Virus record (IMG/VR): IMGVR_UViG_3300028422_001054
Source: an uncultured virus (IMG/VR IMGVR_UViG_3300028422_001054)
Lineage: Duplodnaviria > Heunggongvirae > Uroviricota > Caudoviricetes
Strand: one strand, 5' to 3'
Length of the DNA: 20,000 nucleotides
The notes below the pieces were generated by a model. That model was not told the origin of the DNA and did not search any database. It saw nothing but the letters and a program-made list of their open reading frames with translations. Shown here piece after piece: positions 1,286-19,968 of this stretch; within the stretch, counting starts at the first letter, position 1; each line of letters begins with the position of its first letter. The position numbers were made by a program, and so were the translations under genes.

Positions 1286-3142
1286 TTACCCTCCTATATA
1301 ATCAGTTACAGATGTTAACTGATCTACGTTTATTACATTTAAACGTATTCTTTGCGAATTAGGTGTAATTTGAATTACAACATCTACTACAAACTCATTA
1401 GCATTTCTAACTAATGCAGTATTATTAGATTCATCACATACGATAAGTGCATCATCTAAACCAGAGTTAATCATAGGAGCTAATAAAGTAACACCTTGAT
1501 TATATATTTTTAATCTGTGAGTTGCATCGTTTGGTTTATTAATCTGAGGAGGAAGAATTCTAGAAACCATTTGGTCTGTAATAAGATTTCTAATTCTTCG
1601 TCTACCTACATAAGAATAATCACCATTATCCGCAGCCCTAGTTCTATCACCTTGAATCATCAATCCATACAACAAATCTTCCCCAACATAATTGATATGT
1701 GCAGAATCTAATTGTAAAGCTACTGCTGCTCTATCTGTGAATAAAGCCTCGATAACTCCGGAGCCTATCTGACCCCCATGGTTATTTTCGTCAGTAAACG
1801 AAGGCGAACCACTATCAAAAATATCTACCATCTGAGCGTATTTCACCGCTATTCTACCTGTAAGATTTCTAACAATATTTCCTGTACCATAGGTGTTTGC
1901 CATAATATGCCAAGAGTCGTAACAAGCCATATCTGGATTAGAAATACCTTTAGCAGCCGTAGCAGGATCAGCTAAAATATCTTCTGCTGACAGTTTCTCT
2001 ACAGCATAGATTCCTGACTTATTTAATTGAGCTGTTGACAATATATCAGAAATCATTCCAGGAGTAGCTGTTTCAGAAGATGGGTCAAAAAAGATATCCG
2101 CTTTGTATCGAGCTTTATTCTTAAAATAATTCCAACCTACTGCATAAGAACCACCTGCCTCGGAAGTTGCTGGTAAAGCTGCTCCTCTAGAACTTCCTGT
2201 TAAAGCTTGAGCTACTAGAGTAGGAGCTACATAAGAAGTAATATCACCAAGAGTAAATATTCTAATAAAAGGGTCTGTATCCCCTACAACATTTTGATAG
2301 TAATTAGATCTACCATAGTCATCTAAAGAATTTTCATCTAAAGAGAATAGGTATCTCTTTTTAAAAGTTGTTACCCCTGCAACAGTTTCATAAGCACTTA
2401 TAGAAATCAAACCATTACTATCTGTAATATCTAAAGATACTGGAATATTAGTTGGAGTCGATGTAACAACAACAAGAGTTCCTTCTGCTGTTAAATCTGT
2501 AGCTTTATCTAAAGATACCCCAATCTTATCTATTAAACTAAATCCTGTAGTATTTGTTAAAGTAACAACTAAAACACCGGTAGCTAACGTCAATTCTGCT
2601 GAGGTGAATAAATCCCACTGAGCAGGAGTTGATAAAACGTATGTTTCTACACCAGCATTTGATACCACATCAAATACCAATTTAGTACCATCTTTTAGAT
2701 AAACAAAAAGAGATTCTGGAGTAAGTCCAGCTAATGGCACAGAATAAGTACCTTCAAGACCAGCAACAACTTCTGTTGACTTATAGTCAGTTGCTACATC
2801 TGTTAGAATGTTTGTAGCTAAATCAGAAGGAGTTAACCCCATAGGATATGCTATAGGAGCCGCTACTTTAGGTATAGCTATAGCACCATGTCTACCATCT
2901 TTTGACGGAGCAGAAACCCATAAATTACCAACCGTATTGAAGTCATAAGCTTCAGCTACATTAGGGTAAGCTACAGAAGGTGCACCTAAATAGTTTTTTA
3001 AAGTTGCACTGTTATTTGCTCCGAAGAAAAGAGGCTTCTCGAAACCTTTTTGAGAATGAACTACTGTAGCCCCTATCTCTGTGATGGTTGTTGTTCCAGA
3101 TCCACCTACGGACCTATTGGAAGTTATAATTCGATCACTCAT
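1286..3142 (-). CDS. Contractile tail sheath protein (T4 gp18-like)
   Basis: 618 aa; C-terminal sheath signature IQGDRT...YVGRRR...IVCDESNNT...NEFVVDVVIQ...IRLNV; SD GGAG upstream; followed by tube gene. Confidence 0.9.
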   Translation of the reverse strand: MSDRIITSNRSVGGSGTTTITEIGATVVHSQKGFEKPLFFGANNSATLKNYLGAPSVAYPNVAEAYDFNTVGNLWVSAPSKDGRHGAIAIPKVAAPIAYPMGLTPSDLATNILTDVATDYKSTEVVAGLEGTYSVPLAGLTPESLFVYLKDGTKLVFDVVSNAGVETYVLSTPAQWDLFTSAELTLATGVLVVTLTNTTGFSLIDKIGVSLDKATDLTAEGTLVVVTSTPTNIPVSLDITDSNGLISISAYETVAGVTTFKKRYLFSLDENSLDDYGRSNYYQNVVGDTDPFIRIFTLGDITSYVAPTLVAQALTGSSRGAALPATSEAGGSYAVGWNYFKNKARYKADIFFDPSSETATPGMISDILSTAQLNKSGIYAVEKLSAEDILADPATAAKGISNPDMACYDSWHIMANTYGTGNIVRNLTGRIAVKYAQMVDIFDSGSPSFTDENNHGGQIGSGVIEALFTDRAAVALQLDSAHINYVGEDLLYGLMIQGDRTRAADNGDYSYVGRRRIRNLITDQMVSRILPPQINKPNDATHRLKIYNQGVTLLAPMINSGLDDALIVCDESNNTALVRNANEFVVDVVIQITPNSQRIRLNVINVDQLTSVTDYIGG

Positions 3143-3921: not shown

Positions 3922-5439
3922 TTAAAGAATTCCTCGTTCTACGAGATTTTCTATTATCTTATTAGATGTTATATCCTGAATACCTACAGATTCAACCGAT
4001 TTAATAACTTCCTCTAACAACCCTTTCTGTGGTTTCATAGCACCTACATAAACAAGTTCCGTAAATAGTCTTCCACCTATAATTGTTTCAGGACTTTCCA
4101 CTACTTGTTGTTCTGTAAGCTTAATGGCCTCTAAAGTAATAGCTGTTTCTTCAAGGGATTTTTTACCTGCAACATACCTTGTAACTAAGATATTCTCTGT
4201 CATCTTTAAAGCAGACTTTAACTGATTAAGAGTCATCGCATCAGCATCTCTTTTAGCATTTTTAAGCTCCATCTGATATTGAGACAAAGGGTCATCTTCT
4301 AAGCCAAATTGCTTATCAATCTCTACAGCGATATTTACCATACCTTCACCTAATTTTTCTGCTGGCTTATCTTTTTCTAAAGGTTTAATCATTCTTTGGT
4401 CTAAAGATCCACTTTGAACTACCTCAGACTCGTCAATTTCCTTTTTTTCTATTTCCATTTGAACCTCTTCAATTAGTTTTTTATCTTTTAAACTTTTATT
4501 TAACATGCTAACCATAGGTTGCATAAAAAAAGTAATATATCTTAATAGTTGTTGCGTATGCTTACATGATAAAGAATGGTCTTGTATACCTTTCCACCCC
4601 TTACCTTTTGTACCGGTAGTTAAAGGAATATTTGTAGGATAGATGGAAGCATCTAATTGTGATAAGTTGTAATTAGTTCCTTGCCAATGAAACGCTGGAC
4701 AATTACAAAACATTTGAGCATCAACTTCCGATATAAGTTCTTTTAGCTCATCTCTTGTAACAATTCCAGAATCAGATGGTCGAGTATCTAACCATTTAAA
4801 AAAATTAGGAATTCGTATATAAATTTCATACGTTTTTGAGCTATTCTTTTTAAGATCGAACTTAGCTGAAGGGTCAGTTTCCTGTTTCAAATCCTCTAAA
4901 GGAGTTGCTTCTGTTAAAAAACCCCACTCAACATAATCATCGGTTCCTACCTTCTTTACAACGCAGTCAATTAGTTTTACGCTTTTATTCCCTTCACCAA
5001 CTAAAGATCTACGTTCATCATAAAAAACTTTAGTAAAATCTGACATAGACTCCGGATGTTTTAAATCCAGGAGAGTTACTTCCATAACTTTAGATTCCCT
5101 AATAAAATCTTCTGTATACATATGACGATCACGCAAAGCTCCTGCTAAATCAATAAGCATAAACATAGAAGTGTGTATATTCCCTGAAAACTTATCTAAA
5201 TCTACGAAAGGAGATAACGGAGTAGACCGTCCACTACTGAATAGAAAGTCTCTAGGAATGGCTCTTATTACGGAAGCTGTAGAAATAGGAAATGAAGGCC
5301 TTCTACTATCTAACACTACTAAGTAAAGACTATAGTTGACATTCATCACTTTTGATAATTTGACATTTTTAATTTTTTCTATATTAAAGTACTTTCTCAG
5401 AGTTTGAGCTTGAGGAGTACCATTCATAAACTCAGCCAT
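3922..5439 (-). CDS. SWIM-type zinc-finger domain protein, possibly virion-internal
   Basis: 505 aa; CxC...CxH motif (FCNCPAFHWQG ... SCKH, 4558-4707); several hydrophobic-X-E sites (IRES, VMEV, IDES, LGEG, LTEQ, VVES) between apparent domains. Confidence 0.6.
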   Translation of the reverse strand: MAEFMNGTPQAQTLRKYFNIEKIKNVKLSKVMNVNYSLYLVVLDSRRPSFPISTASVIRAIPRDFLFSSGRSTPLSPFVDLDKFSGNIHTSMFMLIDLAGALRDRHMYTEDFIRESKVMEVTLLDLKHPESMSDFTKVFYDERRSLVGEGNKSVKLIDCVVKKVGTDDYVEWGFLTEATPLEDLKQETDPSAKFDLKKNSSKTYEIYIRIPNFFKWLDTRPSDSGIVTRDELKELISEVDAQMFCNCPAFHWQGTNYNLSQLDASIYPTNIPLTTGTKGKGWKGIQDHSLSCKHTQQLLRYITFFMQPMVSMLNKSLKDKKLIEEVQMEIEKKEIDESEVVQSGSLDQRMIKPLEKDKPAEKLGEGMVNIAVEIDKQFGLEDDPLSQYQMELKNAKRDADAMTLNQLKSALKMTENILVTRYVAGKKSLEETAITLEAIKLTEQQVVESPETIIGGRLFTELVYVGAMKPQKGLLEEVIKSVESVGIQDITSNKIIENLVERGIL

Positions 5440-5449
5440 AGTCTAATAG

Positions 5450-6109
5450 TTAAGAAAACATACTCGGACTTATTGAAAATATTTCCTCAGAAGAGTATTC
5501 TATAATCCTCAAATAGTAGGACCCATAAAATCTACAACGAGCTCTTACTACAATATCCTTGTAAAGAGTCCCTATAAAATCCTTTTTACAGGATTCTGTA
5601 AAAACAACACCAACTAAATGAGTTCCTAACAATCTGGTTGATGCATTTTTAGTTGCTCCGCAGAATAAAACTTTAACTTGTTTACCTCTGGCTCTAAGAT
5701 AGATGCTATCCCCGGACAAAGTAATCTCTAATCTGTTAGAAAAAGGCATAGCTTTCAAGGTTTCTAAAAAAGAAAACTTGTACATATCTGCTTCGTGTTG
5801 ATCTTTAGTTAAAAACAAAGTAGAAAAGGGCATAAACGTACAAACCCTAGAAATACCATAAACGTCGGAAAACAATAAAAGTTGTTGTAAATAAATCATG
5901 GAGAGTATCTCGATTAAAGTGGTTCCACATCTATTTAACCCTCCAGGGAGCTGAAGAATACTTCTTGTGTTTTTTGTGTTCCAGTAGCTTCTCAAGACAT
6001 TCACTGTAGATTCTTTTAACTTACTACTAATATCAGTACCTAAATACTCAGGAGTTAAAAACTCGTCAATACTAGGCGGTAGTTTATTAATATTCTGATA
6101 ATTATTCAT
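5450..6109 (-). CDS. Truncated, probably inactive paralog of the large terminase ATPase domain
   Basis: 219 aa; aligns by eye to TerL (8002-10098): PPSIDEFLTPEYLG vs PPTITEFMTPKYLG; RLLGTHLVGVVFTE vs KLLGLSILGGTISE; YKDIVVRARCRF vs YNDLKGRIYSRF; Walker A position reads RCGTT instead of GAGKS. SD GAGG upstream. Confidence 0.8.
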   Translation of the reverse strand: MNNYQNINKLPPSIDEFLTPEYLGTDISSKLKESTVNVLRSYWNTKNTRSILQLPGGLNRCGTTLIEILSMIYLQQLLLFSDVYGISRVCTFMPFSTLFLTKDQHEADMYKFSFLETLKAMPFSNRLEITLSGDSIYLRARGKQVKVLFCGATKNASTRLLGTHLVGVVFTESCKKDFIGTLYKDIVVRARCRFYGSYYLRIIEYSSEEIFSISPSMFS

Positions 6110-6185
6110 ATAACCTCTTATATAGATAGTACTAGATTAACTTTTCTAAAAAGTATAAGCTTATCAAAGCTAGGAGGCTAAATAG

Positions 6186-6398
6186 ATGAAAACACTTGTA
6201 TTTGCAGTATACAAACTTTTAGTAAGCATTTTATTATTGTTTGGAACATGGTTTGCAATAGGTCCATGGTTATTAAATCAACAATCTAGTTTAATGTACT
6301 TATTGGGAATAATTATCAATATCTCTGTAATCATTCCTGTCGTAAAAATCCTACAAAGTGTAGGTAAAGATATAAAGAAAATAGGAGAAGAACAATGA
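6186..6398 (+). CDS. Small membrane protein with two predicted TM helices
   Basis: 70 aa, two hydrophobic stretches; strong SD AGGAGG at 6172-6177; ATGA overlap with next gene. Confidence 0.75.
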   Translation: MKTLVFAVYKLLVSILLLFGTWFAIGPWLLNQQSSLMYLLGIIINISVIIPVVKILQSVGKDIKKIGEEQ

Positions 6399-7273
6399 AA
6401 AAATTACTAATTTTACTAGTAGTTGTGTTAAGTTTTGTTTCTTGTGCGGATAGAGTTTCGCCAGGATATGTCGGTATCAGAACATACCAAAGAGGTGATA
6501 AAGCAGGTCAATCAGAAGTCTTAGGTGTAGGAAAACATTCTTTTGTATGGGCTACATCAACAGTAGTATTTCCTACTTTTAGACAAAACTATGTTTGGAC
6601 GCAAGATCCTACAGAAGGATCCAAACGAGATGAATCTATCAAGTTTGCTATAGAAGGAATGGAGATAGGTGTAGATATAGGTATAGAGTTCTCTGTTATA
6701 CCTGATTCTGTAGCAGTTGTTTATGCTGAATACCGTAAAACTCTCGATGAATTAACAGCAGGGCCTTTAAGAAATTATATTCGAGATGCTATAACGTTTG
6801 CAACTAAAGATTACAACTCTGTTGAAGAGTTTATTACAGGAAACCTATTAACAGTTATCGTATCAGATGCAGCTAAACAAGTTAAAGATCATTTTAGAAC
6901 AAAAGGTATAGATATCTCTAAAGTATATATTATTGGAAAACCACATTACCCACCTAAAATTGTTGCTGAAATTGAAAACAAAGTTATGAAGGTGCAACAA
7001 GCTGCTGCAAAAGAAAACGAGGTTAGAGAAGCCGAGGCTCAAGCAAAAATAAATGAAGCGAAAGCTACAGGAGAGGCAAGAGCTAAAGAGATTTCCGCTG
7101 AAACTAATGCAAGAATTGTAAAACTAAATGCGGATGCTGAGGCATATGCTAATGAGAAAATTAGTAGGTCATTAACACCTTTACTTCTCGAAGATAAGAA
7201 AATAAATAAGTGGAATGGTGTAGAATCTCTCTACAATGCTGACGGTTCTGGAAACATAATATCGATTAAATAA
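6395..7273 (+). CDS. SPFH / Band 7 (prohibitin-like) protein with lipoprotein-type signal peptide
   Basis: 292 aa; MKKLLILLVVVLSFVSC signal/lipobox, RVSPGYVGI start of SPFH domain, C-terminal Ala/Glu-rich coiled coil (EAEAQAKINEAKATGEARA...AEAYAN) and KWNG tail typical of phage SPFH proteins. Confidence 0.85.
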   Translation: MKKLLILLVVVLSFVSCADRVSPGYVGIRTYQRGDKAGQSEVLGVGKHSFVWATSTVVFPTFRQNYVWTQDPTEGSKRDESIKFAIEGMEIGVDIGIEFSVIPDSVAVVYAEYRKTLDELTAGPLRNYIRDAITFATKDYNSVEEFITGNLLTVIVSDAAKQVKDHFRTKGIDISKVYIIGKPHYPPKIVAEIENKVMKVQQAAAKENEVREAEAQAKINEAKATGEARAKEISAETNARIVKLNADAEAYANEKISRSLTPLLLEDKKINKWNGVESLYNADGSGNIISIK

Positions 7274-7301
7274 ATACTACCTTAAATATTTTATTACCAA
7301 T

Positions 7302-7379
<78 letters not shown>

Positions 7380-7383
7380 ATGA

Positions 7384-8001
7384 CTATTCACCATTATACC
7401 AACTACTGGTAACAATATGTCTTTCTTCTTGTATAGGCGTTACTATAAGGTCATCTGAAGTCTCAGGGATAGGAACCTCTTCACCTTCAACAGGTAAGTC
7501 TTCTTCCCTAAATTTTTCTATTAAATAGGTCATAGCTAATTGCATCTGATTATCTCCTCTAACACCTTCTAAGGTATTTACTGGAGCTATTAAAAACCGT
7601 TGTTGCTGTACAAAAGTTTTACTCTTTACAAGACGTTTCTTTACCTGGAAGAGCTGTAGAATAAAGTTTTCTTTATCTAACCAGATCTGTCTGAATATAA
7701 AGTCATCTTCAGATAGGATATTATCGAAAGATGTGTAAGCATATTTCGGCAAAACATCATAAATATTAATGCCTTCTGACCCATGGCCATCATTTCCATA
7801 AAGCTCAGTTTCCTGACCTGGAATATCTAAATAGCATTCTACGATTTTCATAGATTGAGGAAATACTCTTTTATCCCTGTAAAGATTTAATTCCTCTGTA
7901 GTAACCAGAACTACACCCGTCTTATTCCCTACTTTCTTGATCTTAGCATTGTAAAGTTTTCTACGTGCCCCGTAATGGGCTCTGTTTAGGTTTTCTTGCA
8001 T
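7384..8001 (-). CDS. Putative head-completion / neck protein (possibly gp14-like)
   Basis: 205 aa, ATG immediately after TerL TAG; IVECYLDIPG...EGINIYD loosely resembles head-closure proteins; acidic C-terminal tail. Function call is weak. Confidence 0.4.
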   Translation of the reverse strand: MQENLNRAHYGARRKLYNAKIKKVGNKTGVVLVTTEELNLYRDKRVFPQSMKIVECYLDIPGQETELYGNDGHGSEGINIYDVLPKYAYTSFDNILSEDDFIFRQIWLDKENFILQLFQVKKRLVKSKTFVQQQRFLIAPVNTLEGVRGDNQMQLAMTYLIEKFREEDLPVEGEEVPIPETSDDLIVTPIQEERHIVTSSWYNGE

Positions 8002-10098
8002 CTAAACTTCCTCCAAGTGTTTATCTTTTAATAATTTTTTCAAAAGCTGTTCTTTACGAACAGTTCTATCTACATCTGGATCCAAAATTCTAAGCTCATC
8101 TTCGTTATAGACATACCTAGGAGTGCTTTTCATATCAGTATGACAAATATAAACTGCTGCTGCCGTAGAGTCTGAAACGTCATTTTGATACATCCCTGCA
8201 TCTGACAACAACCAACTAGTATTTTCTTTAGATTTCAAAGCATTGGTTTTCCCTTGCATATGGTCAACTTTCAACCCTTTTTTAGTAGGTACTGTAATTA
8301 ATGATTTTAGGTTATTCTTAAAATAAATCTGTTTCCCTGCTTTAAGTCTATGAGTTGATAGCAAGTTTAATAAAAATAAGTAAGGAGCCATTGTAGTCTC
8401 AACTGATTGCTTTTTTACCTGAAAACCTCTACGTTCTAACCATTGAATAGTTCCTTTAGATTCAAACTGGTCAAAAGAGATTCCGGCAATTCTAATATTA
8501 CCGAGAGTCTTTAAATCTACAATAAACTCTCTTATTGCATCCAGGTTTATTTTAGCACCATTTGATAGAATAGGAAACTGAATATCTATTATATAGATTT
8601 CTCTACCCTCTTTATCCAGCTCTTTATGACACATGGTAAATCCCAAAGCATCTGTTTTCTCTGATTGGTCTACGGATATATAACGTTCTTCTAAAGGATT
8701 TCTCCAGAACTGGTACATCCCATTACCTCTAACAAAATAAGTGTTTACTACTTGATTCCATATAAGGTTTTCTGGCTCAAACATAGAGTCGGCTAGAATA
8801 GATGTCATTATAGACTTTAAACCACCCTGGAAACATTCTTCGATACAAGATCTATTAGTAATAAACTTCGCATCGGCTCCTGCCGGAACCCCTGCATAGT
8901 TTTTCAAGTTCCTAATTAAGTCTTCGTCAAATAAAGGTTTTAACTCTAAAGGAGGGTGTATAAGATCAATCTCCTCGTATCGGGATACCTCTGAGTCATT
9001 TAATATTTTAGGTTCTCTAGAAGCATCTCCTTTAAAAATAGAAAACTTAGCTTCTGGATTCTGAATCTCCCATGTTTTATATTCCCAATAGGCTCCGGTA
9101 ACTACTTTATTACGAAAATATCCTTCAGAATCAGCCTTTGCAGATTCCCCTGTATGAATCATTCTATCTATAGAACATTCCATAGTATTTGGGGAAGAGT
9201 CCATAGATGTTCTTGCCAACCAGTTATTACCAAAACGTGAATAAATCCGTCCTTTTAAATCATTATAACTCCTTAAAATATAATCATCACTAAAACCACG
9301 ATCTAAGAAAAACGTTAACTCTGATATAGTACCTCCTAAAATAGAAAGACCTAATAACTTAGCTGGGTCTGAAATATTCTTAATACCTAAACCATCCTTA
9401 CCATCCCATGTTGGAAAAGATAAATCCATAGTTTTACCAGCAGTAGTCCAACAAACTTTAGAAGCTCCATAATCTTTTTGAGTATTCCTCATTTGCTCGA
9501 TAGTACGGCATTTTTCGTACATTGGGGAAGTTTCTAAGATATTTATCATCGGGTCTACTAAAAGCTCTCTAGCCTTATCCTGAGTGAATGAGAAGGCTAC
9601 AGCACATACTAATGATGCAGGGGAGAGACCTAATTCTTTTTTAGGATTCCTTTTAAGAAAATAGAGATAGTTTTGATACATTGCAGAAACTGTAGATACA
9701 AAAGACTTTCCTGCTCCAATAAATAATGATAATATCAAATGCCTATAGTCATTACCAAACTCCCAGTAATCCGCCATAATATCTAACCAGTACGAGAATA
9801 TATTCTCACCAGTATCCCCTAAATACTTTGGAGTCATAAACTCTGTTATCGTTGGAGGTTTCGATACATAGCTAAACTTCCAGGGATTTTTCATAATATT
9901 TAATAAGTCTTTTTGAGGAAGGTTTGGATTATTAACTAAAAACTCTAAGGACTGTTGTATAAGCTTAATATCATATTTCTCATCTAAGTCTTTATATAAA
10001 GCATCATCTCCCTGAAAAAAGTCAAGAAGCATGTTTGCTGGATCTGAAATAGCAGGTTTATGAATAATAGGTGGCTTTATATTATCAGTAATATTCAT
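8002..10098 (-). CDS. terL: Terminase large subunit
   Basis: 698 aa; Walker A IGAGKS, Walker B-like GGTISE, coupling motif MDSSP, RNase H-like nuclease motifs YISVDQS, ISFDQFES and terminal NDVSDS; SD AAGGAG. Confidence 0.9.
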   Translation of the reverse strand: MNITDNIKPPIIHKPAISDPANMLLDFFQGDDALYKDLDEKYDIKLIQQSLEFLVNNPNLPQKDLLNIMKNPWKFSYVSKPPTITEFMTPKYLGDTGENIFSYWLDIMADYWEFGNDYRHLILSLFIGAGKSFVSTVSAMYQNYLYFLKRNPKKELGLSPASLVCAVAFSFTQDKARELLVDPMINILETSPMYEKCRTIEQMRNTQKDYGASKVCWTTAGKTMDLSFPTWDGKDGLGIKNISDPAKLLGLSILGGTISELTFFLDRGFSDDYILRSYNDLKGRIYSRFGNNWLARTSMDSSPNTMECSIDRMIHTGESAKADSEGYFRNKVVTGAYWEYKTWEIQNPEAKFSIFKGDASREPKILNDSEVSRYEEIDLIHPPLELKPLFDEDLIRNLKNYAGVPAGADAKFITNRSCIEECFQGGLKSIMTSILADSMFEPENLIWNQVVNTYFVRGNGMYQFWRNPLEERYISVDQSEKTDALGFTMCHKELDKEGREIYIIDIQFPILSNGAKINLDAIREFIVDLKTLGNIRIAGISFDQFESKGTIQWLERRGFQVKKQSVETTMAPYLFLLNLLSTHRLKAGKQIYFKNNLKSLITVPTKKGLKVDHMQGKTNALKSKENTSWLLSDAGMYQNDVSDSTAAAVYICHTDMKSTPRYVYNEDELRILDPDVDRTVRKEQLLKKLLKDKHLEEV

Positions 10099-10114
10099 TG
10101 TAATCTCCTTAAAT

Positions 10115-10141
10115 AAAAAAAGAGGAGCCGAAACCCCTCTT
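10115..10141 (-). terminator. Rho-independent terminator after major capsid gene
   Basis: Minus strand AGAGGGG-TTTCGG-CTCCTCT followed by a T run (UUCG-type loop). A second small hairpin AGGAG-GAAA-CTCCT (10154-10167) lies just after the stop codon. Confidence 0.85.
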
Positions 10142-10171
10142 ATTAGTTAATTAAGGAGTTTCCTCCTATTA

Positions 10172-11668
10172 TTACATTACGTCTGTATTTAGAAGTAATA
10201 TACTATTAATATACTTATCTTGAAGTACTGCTTGGTCCTCATAAGTAACCAAACCACTTTCAGTATAGAACTCTGCTGGATGAGTTAGTTTACCCTCGAA
10301 TCTTCCAATAGGTAGGAAAACTCCGAAACTTAAAGAAGCATCATTTGCATCCTCTTCACCATTCTTGTAAACAGTGATAATTTCATCCGGTGCTACACCT
10401 GTAGAACCTGCGGCAGCAGACGCACCTGCATCGATACCACCAGAAACATCTACATATACTGGAAGACCTTCATAAGTACCAGCCTTGTAAACACCTACAG
10501 CGTTAGGTTTAGATTCTCTCACATAACCATCAACCTTAGTTAAATACTCTTGAGCAACAGCACCACAAATTAAATGTGAAATACCACCGTGACCAATTGC
10601 ATTTTGAGTTCTATGAGCAGCTTTATCAATATACTGTTTTAAATCTTGAGCTCTCATGCTAGAAGACGCAGCTCCTAGAGTTACCCAGTCAGCATCAAAA
10701 GTTATTTGAGTTGCCCAAGAAGAAACAGATTTAGCTGTTCTAATTGCTCTAAAACCTTGAGCTTTTACCATTTCTCTAGATGCTCCTGAGATAAGAGTTC
10801 TTTCAGCCCCCATCTTAAGCTGGTCATCCATCATTAAAGATGTCATGTGTGACCATTTTACTGCTAAAGGTTGTGGTTTAGCTTGGAAATCGTAAGCTCT
10901 TAGGTTAATATCCACAGTCTTTATTTGATTATACTGAGAAGGATCTTCTGTATTAACCCCATATTCAACAGTCATTGTTGCACCTGCTAAAGTAGCAGAA
11001 GCTAAAGTACCGCTTATTTCACCTGTTTTTAGGTTTACCCAAGATAGCGAAGCTAACGAAATACCAGGACCTACAATTCTTGCTTTATCAGCACTACCAC
11101 CTGTACCTGCTACACCATTATCATAACCTACTGGTTGACCATTTAAATAAATAGTAACAGATGTTGCTCTTACAACTTTATTAACGGCTGCTAAAGTAAA
11201 CGCATCTGTAGTAGCTACGTGCGTTAAAGCTGCTGTAACAATTTCTGTAGGATAATCGAAGTTAGCAAGAGTATTTCTCATAATCTCGCCTTTGTAAGGA
11301 CCTTCTGCGTAAGCTGTTTGAACTCTATAAATAGAATCCTTCATTCCGGACATCGCCCAAACGTTAAAGATATCGGATCTAATATCATTAACTGCTGTTA
11401 AGTTAATAACCTTTACAATTGTTTGTGGAGTAACTTGGAAAGTATCCGAAATCTGAGTTTCCGTCATCTTTGATAACATTTTCTCAGTATTTTCTAGTAA
11501 TCTAGCAATATTTCTAGCTTTTCTAAAGTTCTTAGTTGCTAAAGAATCTAAAGCACCCTCTTTAAACAAACCTCTCTCAGCACCCCATCTATTAATAAGA
11601 TTTCGGTCTTCTCGTAAAATTCTTTCTTCGTGAATTTTCTTAGATTCTACCATTTTATTGTTTATCAT
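10172..11668 (-). CDS. Major capsid protein (T4 gp23-like HK97 fold)
   Basis: 498 aa; follows protease/scaffold; ARLLENT N-terminal motif, AKPQPLAVKWS, GVYKAGTYEGLPVYVD, FGVFLPI; followed by strong terminator. Confidence 0.88.
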   Translation of the reverse strand: MINNKMVESKKIHEERILREDRNLINRWGAERGLFKEGALDSLATKNFRKARNIARLLENTEKMLSKMTETQISDTFQVTPQTIVKVINLTAVNDIRSDIFNVWAMSGMKDSIYRVQTAYAEGPYKGEIMRNTLANFDYPTEIVTAALTHVATTDAFTLAAVNKVVRATSVTIYLNGQPVGYDNGVAGTGGSADKARIVGPGISLASLSWVNLKTGEISGTLASATLAGATMTVEYGVNTEDPSQYNQIKTVDINLRAYDFQAKPQPLAVKWSHMTSLMMDDQLKMGAERTLISGASREMVKAQGFRAIRTAKSVSSWATQITFDADWVTLGAASSSMRAQDLKQYIDKAAHRTQNAIGHGGISHLICGAVAQEYLTKVDGYVRESKPNAVGVYKAGTYEGLPVYVDVSGGIDAGASAAAGSTGVAPDEIITVYKNGEEDANDASLSFGVFLPIGRFEGKLTHPAEFYTESGLVTYEDQAVLQDKYINSILLLNTDVM

Positions 11669-11861
11669 TCTTTAATTTCCTTTTTTAATAATTACATCTA
11701 ATTTGTTTTGTTTTTAAATAACTTAAATATCCTAAGTGTCTTCCGGATCAATATCAAATCCTTCGTAACTACCTAGGTATATGTTTAAGGTAGTTTTATG
11801 TTAATACAAATTTTTAAATATAACTTTTTTAAATATTTTTATTTAATGTTTTATTAAATAC

Positions 11862-11902: not shown

Positions 11903-13966
11903 TTAAGCTAAGTCACCTAACGCTGTTCCGTCATCATTACCGTAAGAATAGCTTGGTTTAAAGTTACTAAAACTTTCTTTAAAAGATGAATTATCTAAAG
12001 CTTCTCTTTTAATAATTCCGTTTAATTTAAAAATAGTATGTTGTAACTGATCATAAGTAGTACACTCTACTAAAGAACTCTTGTAAGTTGCTAAAGCAGG
12101 GTCTTTTGTAAGAATTTCTTCAACAGCTTCTCTAATTGTCTGAACATTAGCTGTAGATACTTTCTCATCAAAATGATTCATACTTTTGTTATCTAGTATA
12201 TTAGATGTTACGTTTACAGATTCTTTTACAGAATTTTTAGCTTTTTCTGCATCAGTCATATCAGAATCATCCTCTGAACCATCATTAGATTCTTTAATAA
12301 CATTAGGATCTTCAACAGCACCTGTTACAGCTCCAGTTTGTACCGGTAATTCAGGGTCAATTATACCTTCAGCACCTTCTTTAATAACTGTAGGATCTTC
12401 AACAGCACCTGTTACAGCTCCATTTTGTTCTGGTAAAGCAGGATCAATTATACCTTCAGCACCTTCTTGAACAGATTCTTTCTGCTTCTCTAATTGAGAA
12501 CGTAGCAACTTGTTTTGTTCTTTCTCTTTCTTTAATGCTGCTTGAAGAGTAGCTATCTCATTATCTTTAAGATTGTCACCTTCTTTAAACTCTACAGAAG
12601 TTTCTGGAATATTCTCTAATATAACCTTTGCTTCTACTAACTCTATCTTAAGGATTTTTGCATTATCTATTATAACTTCCTCAAGAACCTTACATTTATG
12701 ACCTGAAAATAGTCCTTCTTTCACTTTATTCTCCTCTGATGTAGTACCTGGGGTTACATTAGTTATAGGGTCTGCTACATTGTAATCAACGAGAGATAAA
12801 TCTGCGTTATTATTAGCATCTACTATAGTGTCATGATTTACATCTGCTTTATTGGTTTCAAGGCTTTCTTTAACCTCGGTGTTATCTTTATCGTAAAGCT
12901 TTTGTTTGCCATCACAGCCTTCCTCTACAACATCTTTGTCAGTTTTAGGGTCTGCTACAGCTTTTAGTATTTCTTGTTGTTTTATGTTTGTCTCTTTAAG
13001 AGCTTTAGATAACACTTCCATGGATTCTATAACTTTGTTTTTAGAATCTAATTCCTCTCGAAGCACTTTTATTTCTTCTTCAAGATTTTTTGAAACTTCT
13101 GCTGATTCTTGAAGCTTATTTTTAATCTCCAGAGATTCATTCTCTTTTATCTTCAATAAGTTTTCTTGTTCGGTTTTTATTACATCATAAGCTTCTTTTA
13201 TAGAAGCAACTACAATAGGCAATCTTGCTCTATCTTCGTCTTCGATATAACTCTCAATCACTTTTAGCTTTGCTTTTCGTTCATCTAAATTAACAATAGA
13301 TTTTGCACTCTCTATTAACTTACCGAACTCTAAGTTAAGCTCTGTTAAATTGCTTTTCACTGAATTCTCCTTAGATTCTATAATTGGTTTATTTAAATTC
13401 GATTCTTTTAGAACTTCGCCAGTAGGAGTTACTCTAGGGCTAGAAGGGGTAATATAAACTTCATAAGAAGGTACCATAACTAAATCACACCATCTGTCTA
13501 GTTCTAAATCAAAAACGTATCCTGCATCATCGATGTCACCATCAAAAACAGAAGAAACTCCTAAACTAGCTCCTAAAAATAAAGCTTTCTCTAATTTTAA
13601 ACTGAAAGCCTCATCGATTATATATACGTCAATATATAGGATATCCCCAAGTACTTGTGGATTTTTAGCTACAGCCCCTATATCTTTTGTTGAAGGTTTA
13701 CCTTCATCGTGGTCAAATAAAGCAAAAGTAGCATTCTTCCCGTATTTAGCAGCAACTCGAAGACCCTCTTTTTTTGAATAAATACGATTATTCAAATTAC
13801 GTTGGTCTAGTCTCCAAAGAGGAACCCTATACCCTATCAAATCTTGATAGGTTTGTACTCCCTCTTTTAATTTAATATCTATTTTAGATTCTGTTAACTT
13901 CTCTAAAGGAAGTAACTGCTCATTCCAGTCTCTGTAAAAATTATCTATTAGTTTCTTTTTAGCCAA
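11903..13966 (-). CDS. Prohead core protease (T4 gp21-like) fused to coiled-coil scaffold
   Basis: 687 aa, TTG start; N-terminal NLNNRIYS, FDH (His), LGVSS (Ser), DLVMVPS (Asp) gp21/S77-S80-type motifs; ~500-aa acidic coiled-coil C-terminus with many hydrophobic-X-E(S/G) sites; between portal and capsid. Confidence 0.85.
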   Translation of the reverse strand: MAKKKLIDNFYRDWNEQLLPLEKLTESKIDIKLKEGVQTYQDLIGYRVPLWRLDQRNLNNRIYSKKEGLRVAAKYGKNATFALFDHDEGKPSTKDIGAVAKNPQVLGDILYIDVYIIDEAFSLKLEKALFLGASLGVSSVFDGDIDDAGYVFDLELDRWCDLVMVPSYEVYITPSSPRVTPTGEVLKESNLNKPIIESKENSVKSNLTELNLEFGKLIESAKSIVNLDERKAKLKVIESYIEDEDRARLPIVVASIKEAYDVIKTEQENLLKIKENESLEIKNKLQESAEVSKNLEEEIKVLREELDSKNKVIESMEVLSKALKETNIKQQEILKAVADPKTDKDVVEEGCDGKQKLYDKDNTEVKESLETNKADVNHDTIVDANNNADLSLVDYNVADPITNVTPGTTSEENKVKEGLFSGHKCKVLEEVIIDNAKILKIELVEAKVILENIPETSVEFKEGDNLKDNEIATLQAALKKEKEQNKLLRSQLEKQKESVQEGAEGIIDPALPEQNGAVTGAVEDPTVIKEGAEGIIDPELPVQTGAVTGAVEDPNVIKESNDGSEDDSDMTDAEKAKNSVKESVNVTSNILDNKSMNHFDEKVSTANVQTIREAVEEILTKDPALATYKSSLVECTTYDQLQHTIFKLNGIIKREALDNSSFKESFSNFKPSYSYGNDDGTALGDLA
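12290..12468. repeat. 87-bp (29-aa) in-frame tandem duplication in scaffold domain
   Basis: Copies start at 12290 and 12377; encode EGAEGIIDPxLPxQxGAVTGAVEDPxVIK twice. Confidence 0.92.
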
Positions 13967-13994: not shown

Positions 13995-15893
13995 TTATTT
14001 TTCAGACTCTTGCTTTTTAGCAATCTCTGAAAAATCAGCAGTTACTCCATACAAAGTTTTTCTTAAAGTATTTACTACTTCAGTCGTTTTCTTTGCTTCC
14101 TCTAAGCTCTCTTTAAGCCTAGAGGTCTCTTTAAGCTTAATAGTAGATATTGTTGCTTTCATTGATTCTAAGAACCTCTTATCTAAGCTACTTGTGGAAG
14201 AGGACGCCATAAAATGTCTAGAATCCTCAACACCCTCATATCTACAAGATTCTTGTCGTGTTTTCATGATAGCTTCCCTCATTAAATCTGGAGTTAAAAC
14301 TTCTCGTATTTTAATAAAATGCTCTTGTAATATTGGATCAGAATCCTCTACGTTAATAGTCTCTTCAGTACCATTAGCAATCTCAGACACCCACATATCT
14401 AAATCTTCTTTTGGAGCTACGGACAAGGATGATAAGATACTTCTTATAGTATCCTGAGGAAGTTTTGCAGTCGCTGTAAACCCTAAAAGATCTCTAATAG
14501 TTTCAGCAGTATCCTTGGCAAGTCTGAGCCTTTCTTGATAAAGTCTAACTAACTCTGGGTCATCATCTACTGTTGGTAAAGGCATACTTAATTCAAAGTA
14601 ATCTTTATCTGGGTCATATTCCCCTGTAAGAGTCATTTGGATTTTAACTTGAGTAACTAATTGTTCAAGGATGGCAGACTGTATACTATATACAGCTTTT
14701 GCAAAGACTTTAGATTGGGCTACTAAAGTTTTATTTGAATCTCCAAAACCTTTTTCCTTACCTTGGATTAAATAAGCAATAGGTACATCTAACGCTGATA
14801 TTACGTTTTCTTCATCAGCATCAAGATCGCCTATAGAACTTAAATCCATGGAAGTAGATTTTAAGTCATACTTAAAAACACCATCTATTGTAAAAATCTT
14901 CTGGCCAACTCCGGTAGCATCCTGAGCCGAATAATCAGAAAGATTTTCTTCTATTTCTTTTAATTCCTGTAGCCTTTGAAACATCATATCAATAGGAGTA
15001 GATTCAGCATTCATTAGTGTAACTACTTCTTTTGGAAATGATGCTATTCTAGCTAAAGCTATTAGTTCTTTTGTAGCTTTCCAGGTCATGTAAGGAGCCA
15101 AAGCTGAAAGTAATAATGGTTTTCCGTAGGGAGCAAACTCATGTCTTGAAGAAGGCATTCTAAAATGAGCTACTTGCCAAGGAGCAAATACAAAGTCATC
15201 TATTCTATAACCTATTAAAGTAGATTTAAAATACTCTGAAGTTGCCATATCAGGGTCGTCTATAGCTTTTAGAAGTTGTTGCATTCTGGAATCAGTTTGA
15301 CTAAGTTTATCGTAACCGTAGTAGCCACCTTCTACTTGATGCTTAATTCTAACCGGATTAAACTCGATTCGCTCTTGTAGAGAAAAAGGATCTGCTAAAG
15401 TAGTCTCTGCTATTCCTTCTGTTGGTGTTAAAGAGTTTATAGCTATTGAATTTCCTAATGTAACAAGGTCTTCGACTATAGCTTCTAAATTAGCCTTGGT
15501 ATATCCAGCTTTTTGTAGAAATGTCTTAATCCATCTCTCTTGTTTACGTGTTCTTGCTTTCACTTGAATAGTATCATGAGATATCTTAGAACCTATAGTC
15601 TCATTCTTATAAAGTTTTACTGTTTTAGATACAGGTCCATTATTATGAGCCATCTGGTCTAATATTTGCCAAAGCTGTATTCTTTGATGAAGATTAGGTT
15701 TATCTATAGTGTAACTGTTCCTCCAATGATTTAGAGCTTTTTCTAAATCACTTGGAAGGGTTATGCCTTTATCGGCAAAAGTTCTAGGTAAAACTTCTTT
15801 ACCGCCTAAACTTTTTGAAGTTGTTTGGATAGTAATCCCGAACTCTTTTTTTAAATAATCTAAAGATGCTTTATCAAAACTTGAGGTATTCAT
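13995..15893 (-). CDS. Portal protein (T4 gp20-like)
   Basis: 632 aa; QVAHFRM...FAPYGKPLL...LARIASFP, DLSSIGDLD...ALDVPIAYL motifs typical of gp20-family portals; SD AGGAG. Confidence 0.88.
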   Translation of the reverse strand: MNTSSFDKASLDYLKKEFGITIQTTSKSLGGKEVLPRTFADKGITLPSDLEKALNHWRNSYTIDKPNLHQRIQLWQILDQMAHNNGPVSKTVKLYKNETIGSKISHDTIQVKARTRKQERWIKTFLQKAGYTKANLEAIVEDLVTLGNSIAINSLTPTEGIAETTLADPFSLQERIEFNPVRIKHQVEGGYYGYDKLSQTDSRMQQLLKAIDDPDMATSEYFKSTLIGYRIDDFVFAPWQVAHFRMPSSRHEFAPYGKPLLLSALAPYMTWKATKELIALARIASFPKEVVTLMNAESTPIDMMFQRLQELKEIEENLSDYSAQDATGVGQKIFTIDGVFKYDLKSTSMDLSSIGDLDADEENVISALDVPIAYLIQGKEKGFGDSNKTLVAQSKVFAKAVYSIQSAILEQLVTQVKIQMTLTGEYDPDKDYFELSMPLPTVDDDPELVRLYQERLRLAKDTAETIRDLLGFTATAKLPQDTIRSILSSLSVAPKEDLDMWVSEIANGTEETINVEDSDPILQEHFIKIREVLTPDLMREAIMKTRQESCRYEGVEDSRHFMASSSTSSLDKRFLESMKATISTIKLKETSRLKESLEEAKKTTEVVNTLRKTLYGVTADFSEIAKKQESEK

Positions 15894-16710: not shown

Positions 16711-17250
16711 CTATTTAAGTCCTGTAGAACCCATTTTCCCAGAGCCTCTTGAGGTCTCAAGGAGTTCATCCTTCTCTACCACCTCACAGATAGGTGTTAG
16801 CATAGGTATTAGTTGAGTCAACTTTTCGTCTTTGGAAACCTTAATAGGTTTATCCGTCTGATTACGAATAATAATTACAATTTCCCCTGTATATTGTTTA
16901 TCAACAATTCCTGCAGAGATCTCTAAACCAATTCCAGCTCGACCAGATTTATCTCTAATTTGAATCCATGGTCTAAATTGAGTTTGAAACATATAGTCTA
17001 TCATAGATTTACATACATTAACAATCTGAGGATTTCTAAAGTTATGCTTTTCTAGCATAAATCCAGCCTGATCAAAACCTTTATACTCTAGCTGAGTTGC
17101 TAACCCTGAATGAATTACATTCTTCCCTGGGACTAACACCAAGTCTTCTTTTGCAAAGATATCAAATCCTGCATCCTCATTTTCTACCTTTTGACTAAGA
17201 AGCTTAACCTCTTTATCAAGTCTTTTAACATTTAAGTTAAATAAATTCAT
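16711..17250 (-). CDS. dut: Trimeric dUTPase with internal insertion
   Basis: All five motifs: DAGFDI, RDKSG, GIVDKQYTGEI, LTQL, RGSGKMGSTG. Confidence 0.92.
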   Translation of the reverse strand: MNLFNLNVKRLDKEVKLLSQKVENEDAGFDIFAKEDLVLVPGKNVIHSGLATQLEYKGFDQAGFMLEKHNFRNPQIVNVCKSMIDYMFQTQFRPWIQIRDKSGRAGIGLEISAGIVDKQYTGEIVIIIRNQTDKPIKVSKDEKLTQLIPMLTPICEVVEKDELLETSRGSGKMGSTGLK

Positions 17251-19161: not shown

Positions 19162-19968
19162 TTAATAATTTGTGAAAAGGACTTCTTGATAACCATTTTC
19201 AAGATTTTTCCTAACTTTAGAATAATCCATATCTAAAATAGTTTTCTTCCAACCTCGTGCCTCTAAGCCAAGTAATAAAGGAGAGTTCTCTTTCTTATCA
19301 AACAAAACTCCAGAAACCGCAACAGATGCTACTGTAGATAAACATTTTTCCAAAAGATGATTCTCTTCTACTTTACTCCAAAAGACGTTGTAACCTGCTT
19401 CTGTATTAAAATAAGGCGGGTCTAAATAAACCATGTCTTCTTTAAACCATTTTATTGCTTGGAACCGGTCTTTTCTAGTAATGATAGGAATTTCTTTTTC
19501 TCGAAATTCGGATACCCTGCACAAATAATCTCTTACTTTTTGCTCAGTACTCTCGTTATAGGTTCTCTTTCCAAAAGTTTGATTAAATTCACCCTTCTTA
19601 TTGAACCTCATCATATTCGAGTTACAGCATAAAATTAAAGCCATCAACATTGCAGGATTAAAAGAAGCATTATATCTCTTTCGTAATTCTAAATATCCCT
19701 TAGAATCATCTTTCTTCACACAATATCTCTTTACTTCTGAAATAAAATTGTACCTATTCTCAATAAAAGCTTTATGAATATCTGTGGATATTATATCATT
19801 CATAACTACAGAGTCAAAATTTAACCCGAGATTAAGGGCAACTGACCCACCTCCTGTAAAAACATCAATGAAAGACTTTTTAGAATAGTCTAACAGAGGT
19901 TCAAGCTGGGGTAGTAACTTATATTTACTACCCATATAGTTTAGCGGAGGATTTATATATTTTATCAT
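19162..19968 (-). CDS. dam: DNA adenine methyltransferase (Dam / D12 family)
   Basis: NYMGSK, DVFTGGGSV (motif I), MRFNKKGEFNQTFG, YLDPPY (motif IV), EVLFTNY C-terminus. Target sequence not determined. Confidence 0.9.
   Translation of the reverse strand: MIKYINPPLNYMGSKYKLLPQLEPLLDYSKKSFIDVFTGGGSVALNLGLNFDSVVMNDIISTDIHKAFIENRYNFISEVKRYCVKKDDSKGYLELRKRYNASFNPAMLMALILCCNSNMMRFNKKGEFNQTFGKRTYNESTEQKVRDYLCRVSEFREKEIPIITRKDRFQAIKWFKEDMVYLDPPYFNTEAGYNVFWSKVEENHLLEKCLSTVASVAVSGVLFDKKENSPLLLGLEARGWKKTILDMDYSKVRKNLENGYQEVLFTNY

Follow-up and report, generated by a model that had tools for sequence, protein, structure and literature searches.

No protein of tailed phages is more conserved than the large terminase (TerL), which is also a main target of bacterial pattern-recognition immunity. 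Stand-alone look-alikes of its ATPase domain are already in print, namely vs.8 of phage T4 and the truncated terminases of Rak2-like phages, and here we compare them with ORF219, an open reading frame (ORF) in a 20,000-nucleotide stretch of DNA from an uncultured myovirus (IMG/VR record IMGVR_UViG_3300028422_001054), which we call the window. ORF219 is an independently derived, P-loop-dead variant of these look-alikes. Truncated or stand-alone look-alikes of the TerL ATPase form a class that has turned up repeatedly, and within this class ORF219 represents an independent origin in the MJ0330_N-type TerL family.

T4 vs.8 (NP_049732, 219 amino acids; Evans et al. 2026, Nat Commun, PMC13601566) is described there as restricted to one phage taxon. 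ORF219 is like vs.8 in that it stands alone, has the same length, and resembles only the ATPase domain of the TerL of its own lineage. A further likeness is an FLTxxYL motif, which in vs.8 precedes the P-loop by about 45 residues, as it does in ORF219 and TerL; an hhalign comparison of vs.8 with the TerL-domain profile places the two in register, though only at E 0.014 (probability 3%). The FLTGPYL of vs.8 (locus L080, 12254-12913) lies about 45 residues ahead of Walker A and is similar to the EFLTPxYLG of MJ0330_N-type TerLs and ORF219; such a motif may commonly precede the P-loop of terminases. Unlike ORF219, vs.8 keeps both Walker A (GGRQSGKS) and Walker B (PMC13601566), and it lies in the tk-vs-regB-denV region of T4 rather than among structural genes, whereas ORF219 heads a block of tail genes. 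BLASTP found no sequence relation between the two proteins (E 4), which argues for independent origins from different TerL families.

Truncated terminases have also been described in Rak2-like phages (CBB_274) and in the Sinorhizobium phages phiM12 and phiN3 (Buttimer et al. 2017, PMC5259590). Like the Rak2-type copies, ORF219 is an incomplete large-terminase gene that a large myovirus carries in addition to a complete one, but the Rak2-type copies adjoin terL and are common to their whole phage group (PMC5259590). Ksap1 and Ksap2, by contrast with ORF219, which is a sequence homolog of TerL, resemble terminase at the level of the fold only, with no sequence homology. Both are small phage proteins that activate the sensor KpAvs2, and Ksap2 (Bas60_220) is weakly TerL-ATPase-like (Bechon et al. 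2024, PMC11564622). The functions of vs.8, Ksap1 and Ksap2 are called open by the authors of PMC13601566.

ORF219 as a homolog of the terminase ATPase domain

The 698-amino-acid ORF that lies 1.9 kb from ORF219, with four ORFs in between, among them orf205 and two plus-strand genes, is a true large terminase. By tblastn it matched 199 phage records (best E 1e-23), most of them annotated as large terminase. Its relatives in the protein collection number 21, and four of them (P0005-P0008) are 69-75% identical to it over 98-99% of the length. It is full length and uninterrupted. BLASTP aligned ORF219 with this TerL only over residues 11-80 (TerL residues 81-147), with 24/72 identities and an E-value of 5e-6. 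The pairwise similarity of the C-terminal two thirds is marginal: residues 81-219 against TerL 148-340 gave a Smith-Waterman score of 40, compared with 28.2 +/- 4.8 for shuffled sequences, and this score was reached in 12 of 500 shuffles. With a profile of 19 TerLs, hhalign placed residues 10-210 of ORF219 collinear with TerL 80-305 (probability 96.4, E 1.4e-9). A tblastn search of 79 related IMG/VR TerL loci with ORF219 found matches in terL genes only, the best of them with the TerL of locus L002 (24% over 233 amino acids, E 8.6e-11), while searches of Pfam and PHROGs with ORF219 gave no match. These results bear out an earlier reading of this DNA made without database searches (the sequence-only reading), which had proposed a collinear alignment with TerL residues of about 78-303 and a pairwise comparison to check it.

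The same reading had pointed to a stretch of DNA, 6039-6064, that matches 9818-9843 at 22/26 nucleotides, and the match is exactly as described. It lies in frame within the PPxIxEFxTPxYLG motif and is explained by protein conservation in that motif. We considered gene conversion as its source and rejected it: five of the seven synonymous sites agree, which we judged unremarkable in a genome with biased codons and 34% GC, a judgement based on our own reading of the alignment and on counts made by hand, with no expectation computed.

We compared the catalytic motifs in an alignment of 38 rows, consisting of 37 TerL rows and ORF219. The P-loop signature GK[ST] is found in 37/37 TerL rows. In ORF219 the corresponding segment reads GGLNRCGTT, in which IGAGKS has become NRCGTT, and residues 51-70 contain no lysine at all, so that the loss of the catalytic lysine noted in the sequence-only reading stands. 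The closest TerL, that of L002, reads IRCGKS at the position of NRCGTT. P-loop NTPases that lack the Walker A lysine do not hydrolyse ATP, and ORF219, whose P-loop has none, is therefore very probably unable to do so, as judged from its sequence.

Other parts of the domain are retained. Residues P11, P12, E16 and F17, as well as G162 and the Walker-B glutamate E172, are invariant in 38/38 rows, and ORF219 keeps the N-terminal motif, LLG, E172, R189 and the two serines of DSSPN. Of DSSPN the D, P and N are gone, as is the WTTA block. The nearly invariant arginine of LMRxPKK (R150 of TerL), which from its position would be the arginine finger, is replaced by serine in ORF219, beside a gap of four residues. 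Furthermore, ORF219 lacks the first ~78 residues of TerL as well as the C-terminal RNase-H-like nuclease domain. Its last residue corresponds to TerL residue ~309, and a tblastn search of the window with the complete TerL turned up no other TerL piece, in agreement with the earlier observation that the protein stops where the ATPase core ends, without a nuclease domain. It stops at this point because orf505 begins there.

ORF219 is predicted to share the fold of the TerL ATPase domain. Its single-sequence model in the ESM Atlas has a predicted template-modelling score (pTM) of 0.79, and the structures nearest to this model are viral TerL-type proteins with MJ0330_N (PF27249), 642-834 amino acids long, which match residues 8-219 with template-modelling (TM) scores of 0.77-0.80. 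A resemblance to the TerL fold, which the sequence-only reading had named as a structural check, is thus present in this model. An AlphaFold2 (AF2) model made with an alignment of TerL domains reached a predicted local distance difference test score (pLDDT) of 71 and a pTM of 0.71, with pLDDT values of 91-93 at residues 11-24. Since the input alignment could impose the fold on the AF2 model, the single-sequence Atlas model weighs more. Both models are consistent with a RecA-like/ASCE terminase ATPase fold, and a Foldseek search of the PDB with ORF219 gave no match at E <= 0.001.

Divergence and apparent maintenance of the reading frame

The frame of ORF219 contains no internal stop codon, whereas the remaining five frames of this DNA have 14-22, and the chance of an open frame at its base composition is 3.6e-8. 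We also simulated unconstrained drift of TerL-domain DNA down to 60, 45 and 35% retained residues, with indels ignored. The frame stayed free of stops in 0/1500 simulations per level (4500 in total), with a mean of 7.6-12 stops. Some force removes stops from ORF219.

The residues that ORF219 retains are concentrated in the most conserved columns. It keeps 9/14 of the TerL columns conserved at 90% or more, 5/17 of those at 80-90%, and 3/22 of those at 70-80%. In total its retention is the lowest of all rows, with 14/31 of the columns conserved at 80% or more, compared with 18/32 or more in real TerLs, and ORF219 is thus no recent piece of a TerL that still worked. When we simulated neutral drift that only keeps the frame free of stops, starting from four TerL parents and realigning the products, the fraction retained in the class at 90% or more was 0.28-0.41 +/- 0.12; a retention of 9/14 was reached in 3/72 simulations and the joint pattern in 0/72. 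This points to residual selection on the fold core of ORF219. The view of the sequence-only reading that the frame is intact, and maintained rather than freshly broken, agrees with both results (p < 1/1500 under drift, and retention skewed to conserved columns).

ORF219 is also far diverged, as had been claimed. We placed it in a tree of 56 ATPase domains, where its end branch of 5.93 changes per site is about 25 times as long as the median of 0.24. The tree gives ORF219 no firm place, and sisterhood with the clade of the window's TerL was not rejected (log-likelihood +0.49; approximately unbiased test, p-AU 0.548). ORF219 may have arisen by duplication within its own lineage or equally by capture of a terL copy from a different phage.

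Short ORFs that contain only the N-terminal ATPase part of TerL also occur as 5′ exons or fragments of split TerL genes (P0026-P0029 and loci L011...L074), and in this respect they are like ORF219. The split pieces, however, have the true N-terminus of TerL, keep GKS, and are completed by downstream exons, and none of this is true of ORF219. We rejected the idea that ORF219 is itself an exon of a TerL gene split by an intron or intein, as the TerL of the window is already complete and uninterrupted. A profile search among proteins of 120-461 amino acids found five domain-sized matches, which are four GKS-bearing 5′ pieces of split TerLs and ORF219 itself; the same search found no other lysine-less stand-alone copy in ORF219's TerL family.

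The TerL genes of this family at a number of loci (L011, L019-L022, L025, L029, L034, L039, L042, L050, L071 and L074) contain inserts of ~0.8-2.6 kb. The insert sites recur around residue 131 (inside Walker A), at residues 140-166, and at residues 220-270 (around Walker B). One TerL relative (P0011, 1042 amino acids) contains a LAGLIDADG domain, and there are Atlas neighbours with intein-splicing domains. The inserts look like intein or intron homing into the catalytic motifs of the motor. The two internal deletions of ORF219 lie near the second and third of these sites, which may be a coincidence.

Genomic setting and expression signals

The window is a minus-strand structural module within a contig of 129,693 bp and has a GC content of 34%. 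Coordinates of its features are collected in the table.

Table. Features of ORF219 and of its surroundings in the window, ordered by position
Feature	Position	Strand	Remarks
Tail tube	749-1282	minus	
Tail sheath	1286-3142	minus	
orf505	3922..5439	minus	conserved; followed by orf244
ORF219	5450..6109	minus	219 amino acids, ATG start, 219 codons; stand-alone P-loop-dead paralog of the TerL ATPase domain
ORF219 residues 205-207, YSS	5489..5497	minus	what is left of DSSPN (D->Y, P->E, N->E)
ORF219 residues 160-172, LLGTHLVGVVFTE	5594..5632	minus	retained LLG motif and Walker-B catalytic Glu (E172)
ORF219 residues 56-64, GGLNRCGTT	5918..5944	minus	degenerate Walker A without lysine (TerL: FIGAGKS)
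ORF219 residues 11-24, PPSIDEFLTPEYLG	6038..6079	minus	best-conserved TerL-family motif (TerL: PPTITEFMTPKYLG); holds the 22/26-nucleotide match
Divergent intergenic region	6110..6185		76 bp; holds the ribosome-binding site of ORF219 and a putative promoter
Membrane ORF	6186-6398	plus	70 amino acids; part of the SPFH moron
SPFH/Band-7 lipoprotein	6395-7273	plus	292 amino acids; Band_7 1.9e-14; phrog_200 1.7e-56
Hairpin	7302-7343		21-nucleotide arms; between the convergent SPFH and orf205 genes
(TATC)9.5 microsatellite	7342-7379		perfect; directly after the hairpin
orf205	7384..8001	minus	conserved; directly after terL
TerL	8002..10098	minus	intact, 698 amino acids; parent family of ORF219
Major capsid protein	10172-11668	minus	
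Scaffold-like protein		minus	687 amino acids; between portal and major capsid protein
Portal	13995-15893	minus	
dUTPase	16711-17250	minus	
Dam methylase	19162-19968	minus	

In the related locus L031, a single contig carries terL followed further on by orf205, orf505, orf244, sheath and tube, and the orf205 homolog (14708-15211) overlaps the start of the orf505 homolog (15208) by ATGA. An overlap of start and stop codons of this kind is classic translational coupling. In the window, a block at 5450-7383, which consists of ORF219 and the reverse-strand SPFH moron, occupies exactly the junction between orf205 and orf505. The ATG of orf505 follows 10 nucleotides after the stop codon of ORF219 and has no clear Shine-Dalgarno sequence. 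ORF219 is thus very probably the first cistron of a restarted tail-gene transcript, in place of the upstream coupled gene. This position may also supply a simpler reason for its open frame, which the sequence-only reading had missed.

ORF219 has a Shine-Dalgarno sequence of its own, AAGAGG at 6114-6119 on the minus strand, four nucleotides ahead of its ATG, as that reading had stated. The intergenic region that holds it would also contain a promoter at which transcription of the minus strand starts anew, to cover ORF219, orf505, orf244, sheath and tube. No sigma-70-like site was found in 6110-6185. The late-promoter motif that had been suggested at 6124-6132 was not confirmed: there are 16 copies of WACTATWR where 17.6 are expected, and on both strands 22 copies of CTATWWRA where 20.3 are expected, neither of which is above chance. 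On the minus strand, five of 11 CTATWWRA sites are found a short way upstream of gene starts, and this motif is a candidate promoter motif only. Two DNA sequencing runs contain DNA of the window; they stem from a hydrothermal-vent metagenome and are probably one data set filed twice.

The SPFH moron was absent from 79/79 related loci at E 1e-4, and its codon usage is well adapted. We found no convincing repeats flanking the inserted block, and Rfam had no match in the window. The gene downstream of ORF219, orf505, is conserved in L031, L033 and L054 at 29-31% identity and had no match in Pfam or PHROGs; the window's copy exceeds its L031 homolog by ~190 residues. In its sequence there is a CxC…CxH pattern (CNCPAFHW…SCKH) that may resemble a SWIM zinc finger. 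The position of terL after the capsid gene is unusual, and no recognisable small-terminase gene adjoins it in the window. Between the major capsid gene and terL, at 10099-10171, there is a GC-rich hairpin followed by a run of T (…aagaggggtttcggctcctcttttttt…), which resembles a terminator immediately ahead of terL. A tandem repeat of 87 nucleotides (2.1 copies, 91% matches) at 12290-12468 lies within the gene for the scaffold-like protein, where it duplicates an acidic segment of 29 residues (…GAEGIIDP.LP.Q.GAVTGAVEDP.VIKE…).

What ORF219 may do

We propose, with a probability of only about 0.42, that ORF219 is translated and selected as a pseudo-ATPase that acts solely by binding to a partner. 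A copy of TerL codons ~76-309 would have been caught at the junction of the conserved late genes orf205 and orf505, and the reverse-strand SPFH moron would have been captured along with this fragment. As ORF219 would not hydrolyse ATP, any activity of the protein would be by binding, and candidate partners are those that normally see the ATPase domain of TerL: TerL itself in the motor ring, the portal, a small-terminase-like factor, or a host factor. The protein would be made late, from the first cistron of the tail-gene transcript. The Shine-Dalgarno sequence of ORF219, together with the hairpin upstream at 7302-7343, supports the proposal as expression signals. T4 vs.8, CBB_274 and the copies of phiM12 and phiN3 serve as precedents for phages retaining domains of this type.

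Several observations weigh against this proposal. ORF219 has two deletions in conserved blocks, one after WTTA and one after Walker B, and AF2 confidence is low at residues 87-97 and 131-170. It is also an orphan. A phmmer search of 1.84 billion representatives and a word-indexed search returned only ORF219 itself, and a search of IMG/VR returned no relative. There was likewise no match in tblastn of ORF219 against 50,697 phage records, in megablast of window positions 5000-11700 against the phage records, in IMG/VR scans for the DNA of close relatives with ORF219 or TerL alone, or in further scans with alignment A3 and with relative P0006. A second copy of terL was found in 0/79 related TerL loci (a set that leaves out the four closest relatives, at 69-75% identity), so the pairing of TerL with a dead paralog that the sequence-only reading had suggested looking for in related phages did not appear among these loci. 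With no ortholog of ORF219, long-term retention and the ratio of nonsynonymous to synonymous substitution rates (dN/dS) are not demonstrable. The retention test described above is small, as it depends on 14 columns and on a difficult alignment. The codon-usage score of ORF219, 0.078 bits per codon, is the lowest among the large ORFs, and GC content is flat across the three codon positions (0.32/0.38/0.30). We give composition little weight and consider it a weak sign of decay, because the parent TerL domain is itself similar (0.37/0.41/0.27). No RNA sequencing run with window DNA was listed. Finally, ORF219 stands in the place of a coupled upstream gene, which provides a reason for an open frame that does not involve its protein.

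This last point leads to a reading, which we consider somewhat less likely, in which ORF219 is a passenger ORF kept for the sake of gene expression. The insertion would have split the coupled orf205-orf505 pair and cut the late transcript, and the Shine-Dalgarno sequence and upstream promoter of ORF219 would supply orf505, orf244, sheath and tube with ribosomes and with transcription. Selection would then remove only stops and frameshifts, through loss of coupling and Rho polarity, while the amino-acid sequence drifts. The ATGA overlap in L031, where the window pair is parted by the inserted block, fits this reading, as do the absence of a clear Shine-Dalgarno sequence before orf505, the presence of a hairpin and plus-strand genes between orf205 and ORF219, the extreme end branch, the low codon-usage score, and the orphan status. 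However, uniform stop-free drift misses the skew towards conserved columns, the single-sequence model folds confidently as a TerL ATPase domain, and a spacer of 660 nucleotides is far beyond the needs of coupling, so that deletions should have shortened ORF219. That ORF219 is a decaying pseudogene, a recent unselected terminase fragment heading to deletion, is highly improbable. The lost catalytic motifs, the internal deletions relative to TerL, the orphan status, and a variable insertion site would suit such a fragment, but the frame never stayed open in the simulations of unconstrained drift. Moreover, no TerL among the 1.84e9 representatives is close to ORF219, and its divergence thus came after the end of its terminase role. 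Hardly credible is an assembly chimera, in which ORF219 and TerL from two phages would have been misjoined at the (TATC)n microsatellite. The public contigs of the two source runs stop at 7330 and restart at 7388, with no listed piece spanning the repeat; mapped to the window, they show no variants and no joints, and the break falls at the microsatellite. The mapping of these contigs skipped repeat letters itself, though, and a repeat of 38 nucleotides exceeds the 31-letter words sampled by the run index and could alone stop a word-based assembler. Sequencing depth is alike on both sides (15.6 vs 13.4), and the join recreates the L031 order of terL ... orf205, then orf505, orf244, sheath and tube.

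Two further readings place ORF219 in conflict with host or rival. The sequence-only reading had suggested either an immune decoy or a dominant-negative or regulatory subunit of the packaging motor. As an immune decoy, which we regard as quite unlikely, ORF219 would bind sensors of TerL (Avs1-3 or Upx-like) without activating them, or soak them up, and thereby protect TerL. Fast evolution combined with a kept fold and lost catalysis resembles a protein in an arms race, EcAvs2 and Upx recognise the ATPase domain alone, and an anti-defence role for vs.8 and Ksap1/2 is raised as a speculation in PMC13601566. On the other hand, Avs sensors oligomerise on binding their target (PMC13601566), and the known TerL-ATPase look-alikes vs.8 and Ksap1/2 activate Avs2 rather than block it (PMC13601566, PMC11564622). 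The interface of EcAvs2 is sealed by bridging ATP that contacts the ATP bound to terminase, and SeAvs3 reads active-site residues of terminase along with its bound ATP (PMC13601566). ORF219, which lacks the P-loop lysine, should be without these features and should thus compete poorly, which would make a decoy mechanistically awkward for sensors of the Avs2/Avs3 type. Our literature searches turned up nothing on terminase decoys or on dominant-negative paralogs of TerL. A broader version, unlikely by some way, is that ORF219 is a fast-evolving conflict protein, an ATP-blind mimic of the motor that blunts sensors or poisons the packaging rings of rivals. Sensors could bind the beta-strands of the ATPase domain independently of catalysis, as proposed for Upx, which has been modelled as binding an unfolded ATPase core (PMC13601566). 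The packaging rings of co-infecting rivals would be poisoned while the phage's own diverged TerL would be spared.

Returning to the proposal of a binding-only pseudo-ATPase, ORF219 adds, besides vs.8 and the Rak2-like copies, an independent origin of a stand-alone ATPase half in a different terminase family. Its P-loop without lysine, its extreme divergence, and a frame that stays open beyond what drift allows strengthen the case that TerL domains which are dead as motors have proved useful more than once. At the same time, its position before a conserved gene that has no clear Shine-Dalgarno sequence illustrates that open frames can persist for reasons other than their protein. If ORF219 were indeed a conflict protein, independent dead copies in unrelated phages would represent a general, undescribed strategy of counter-defence or interference.

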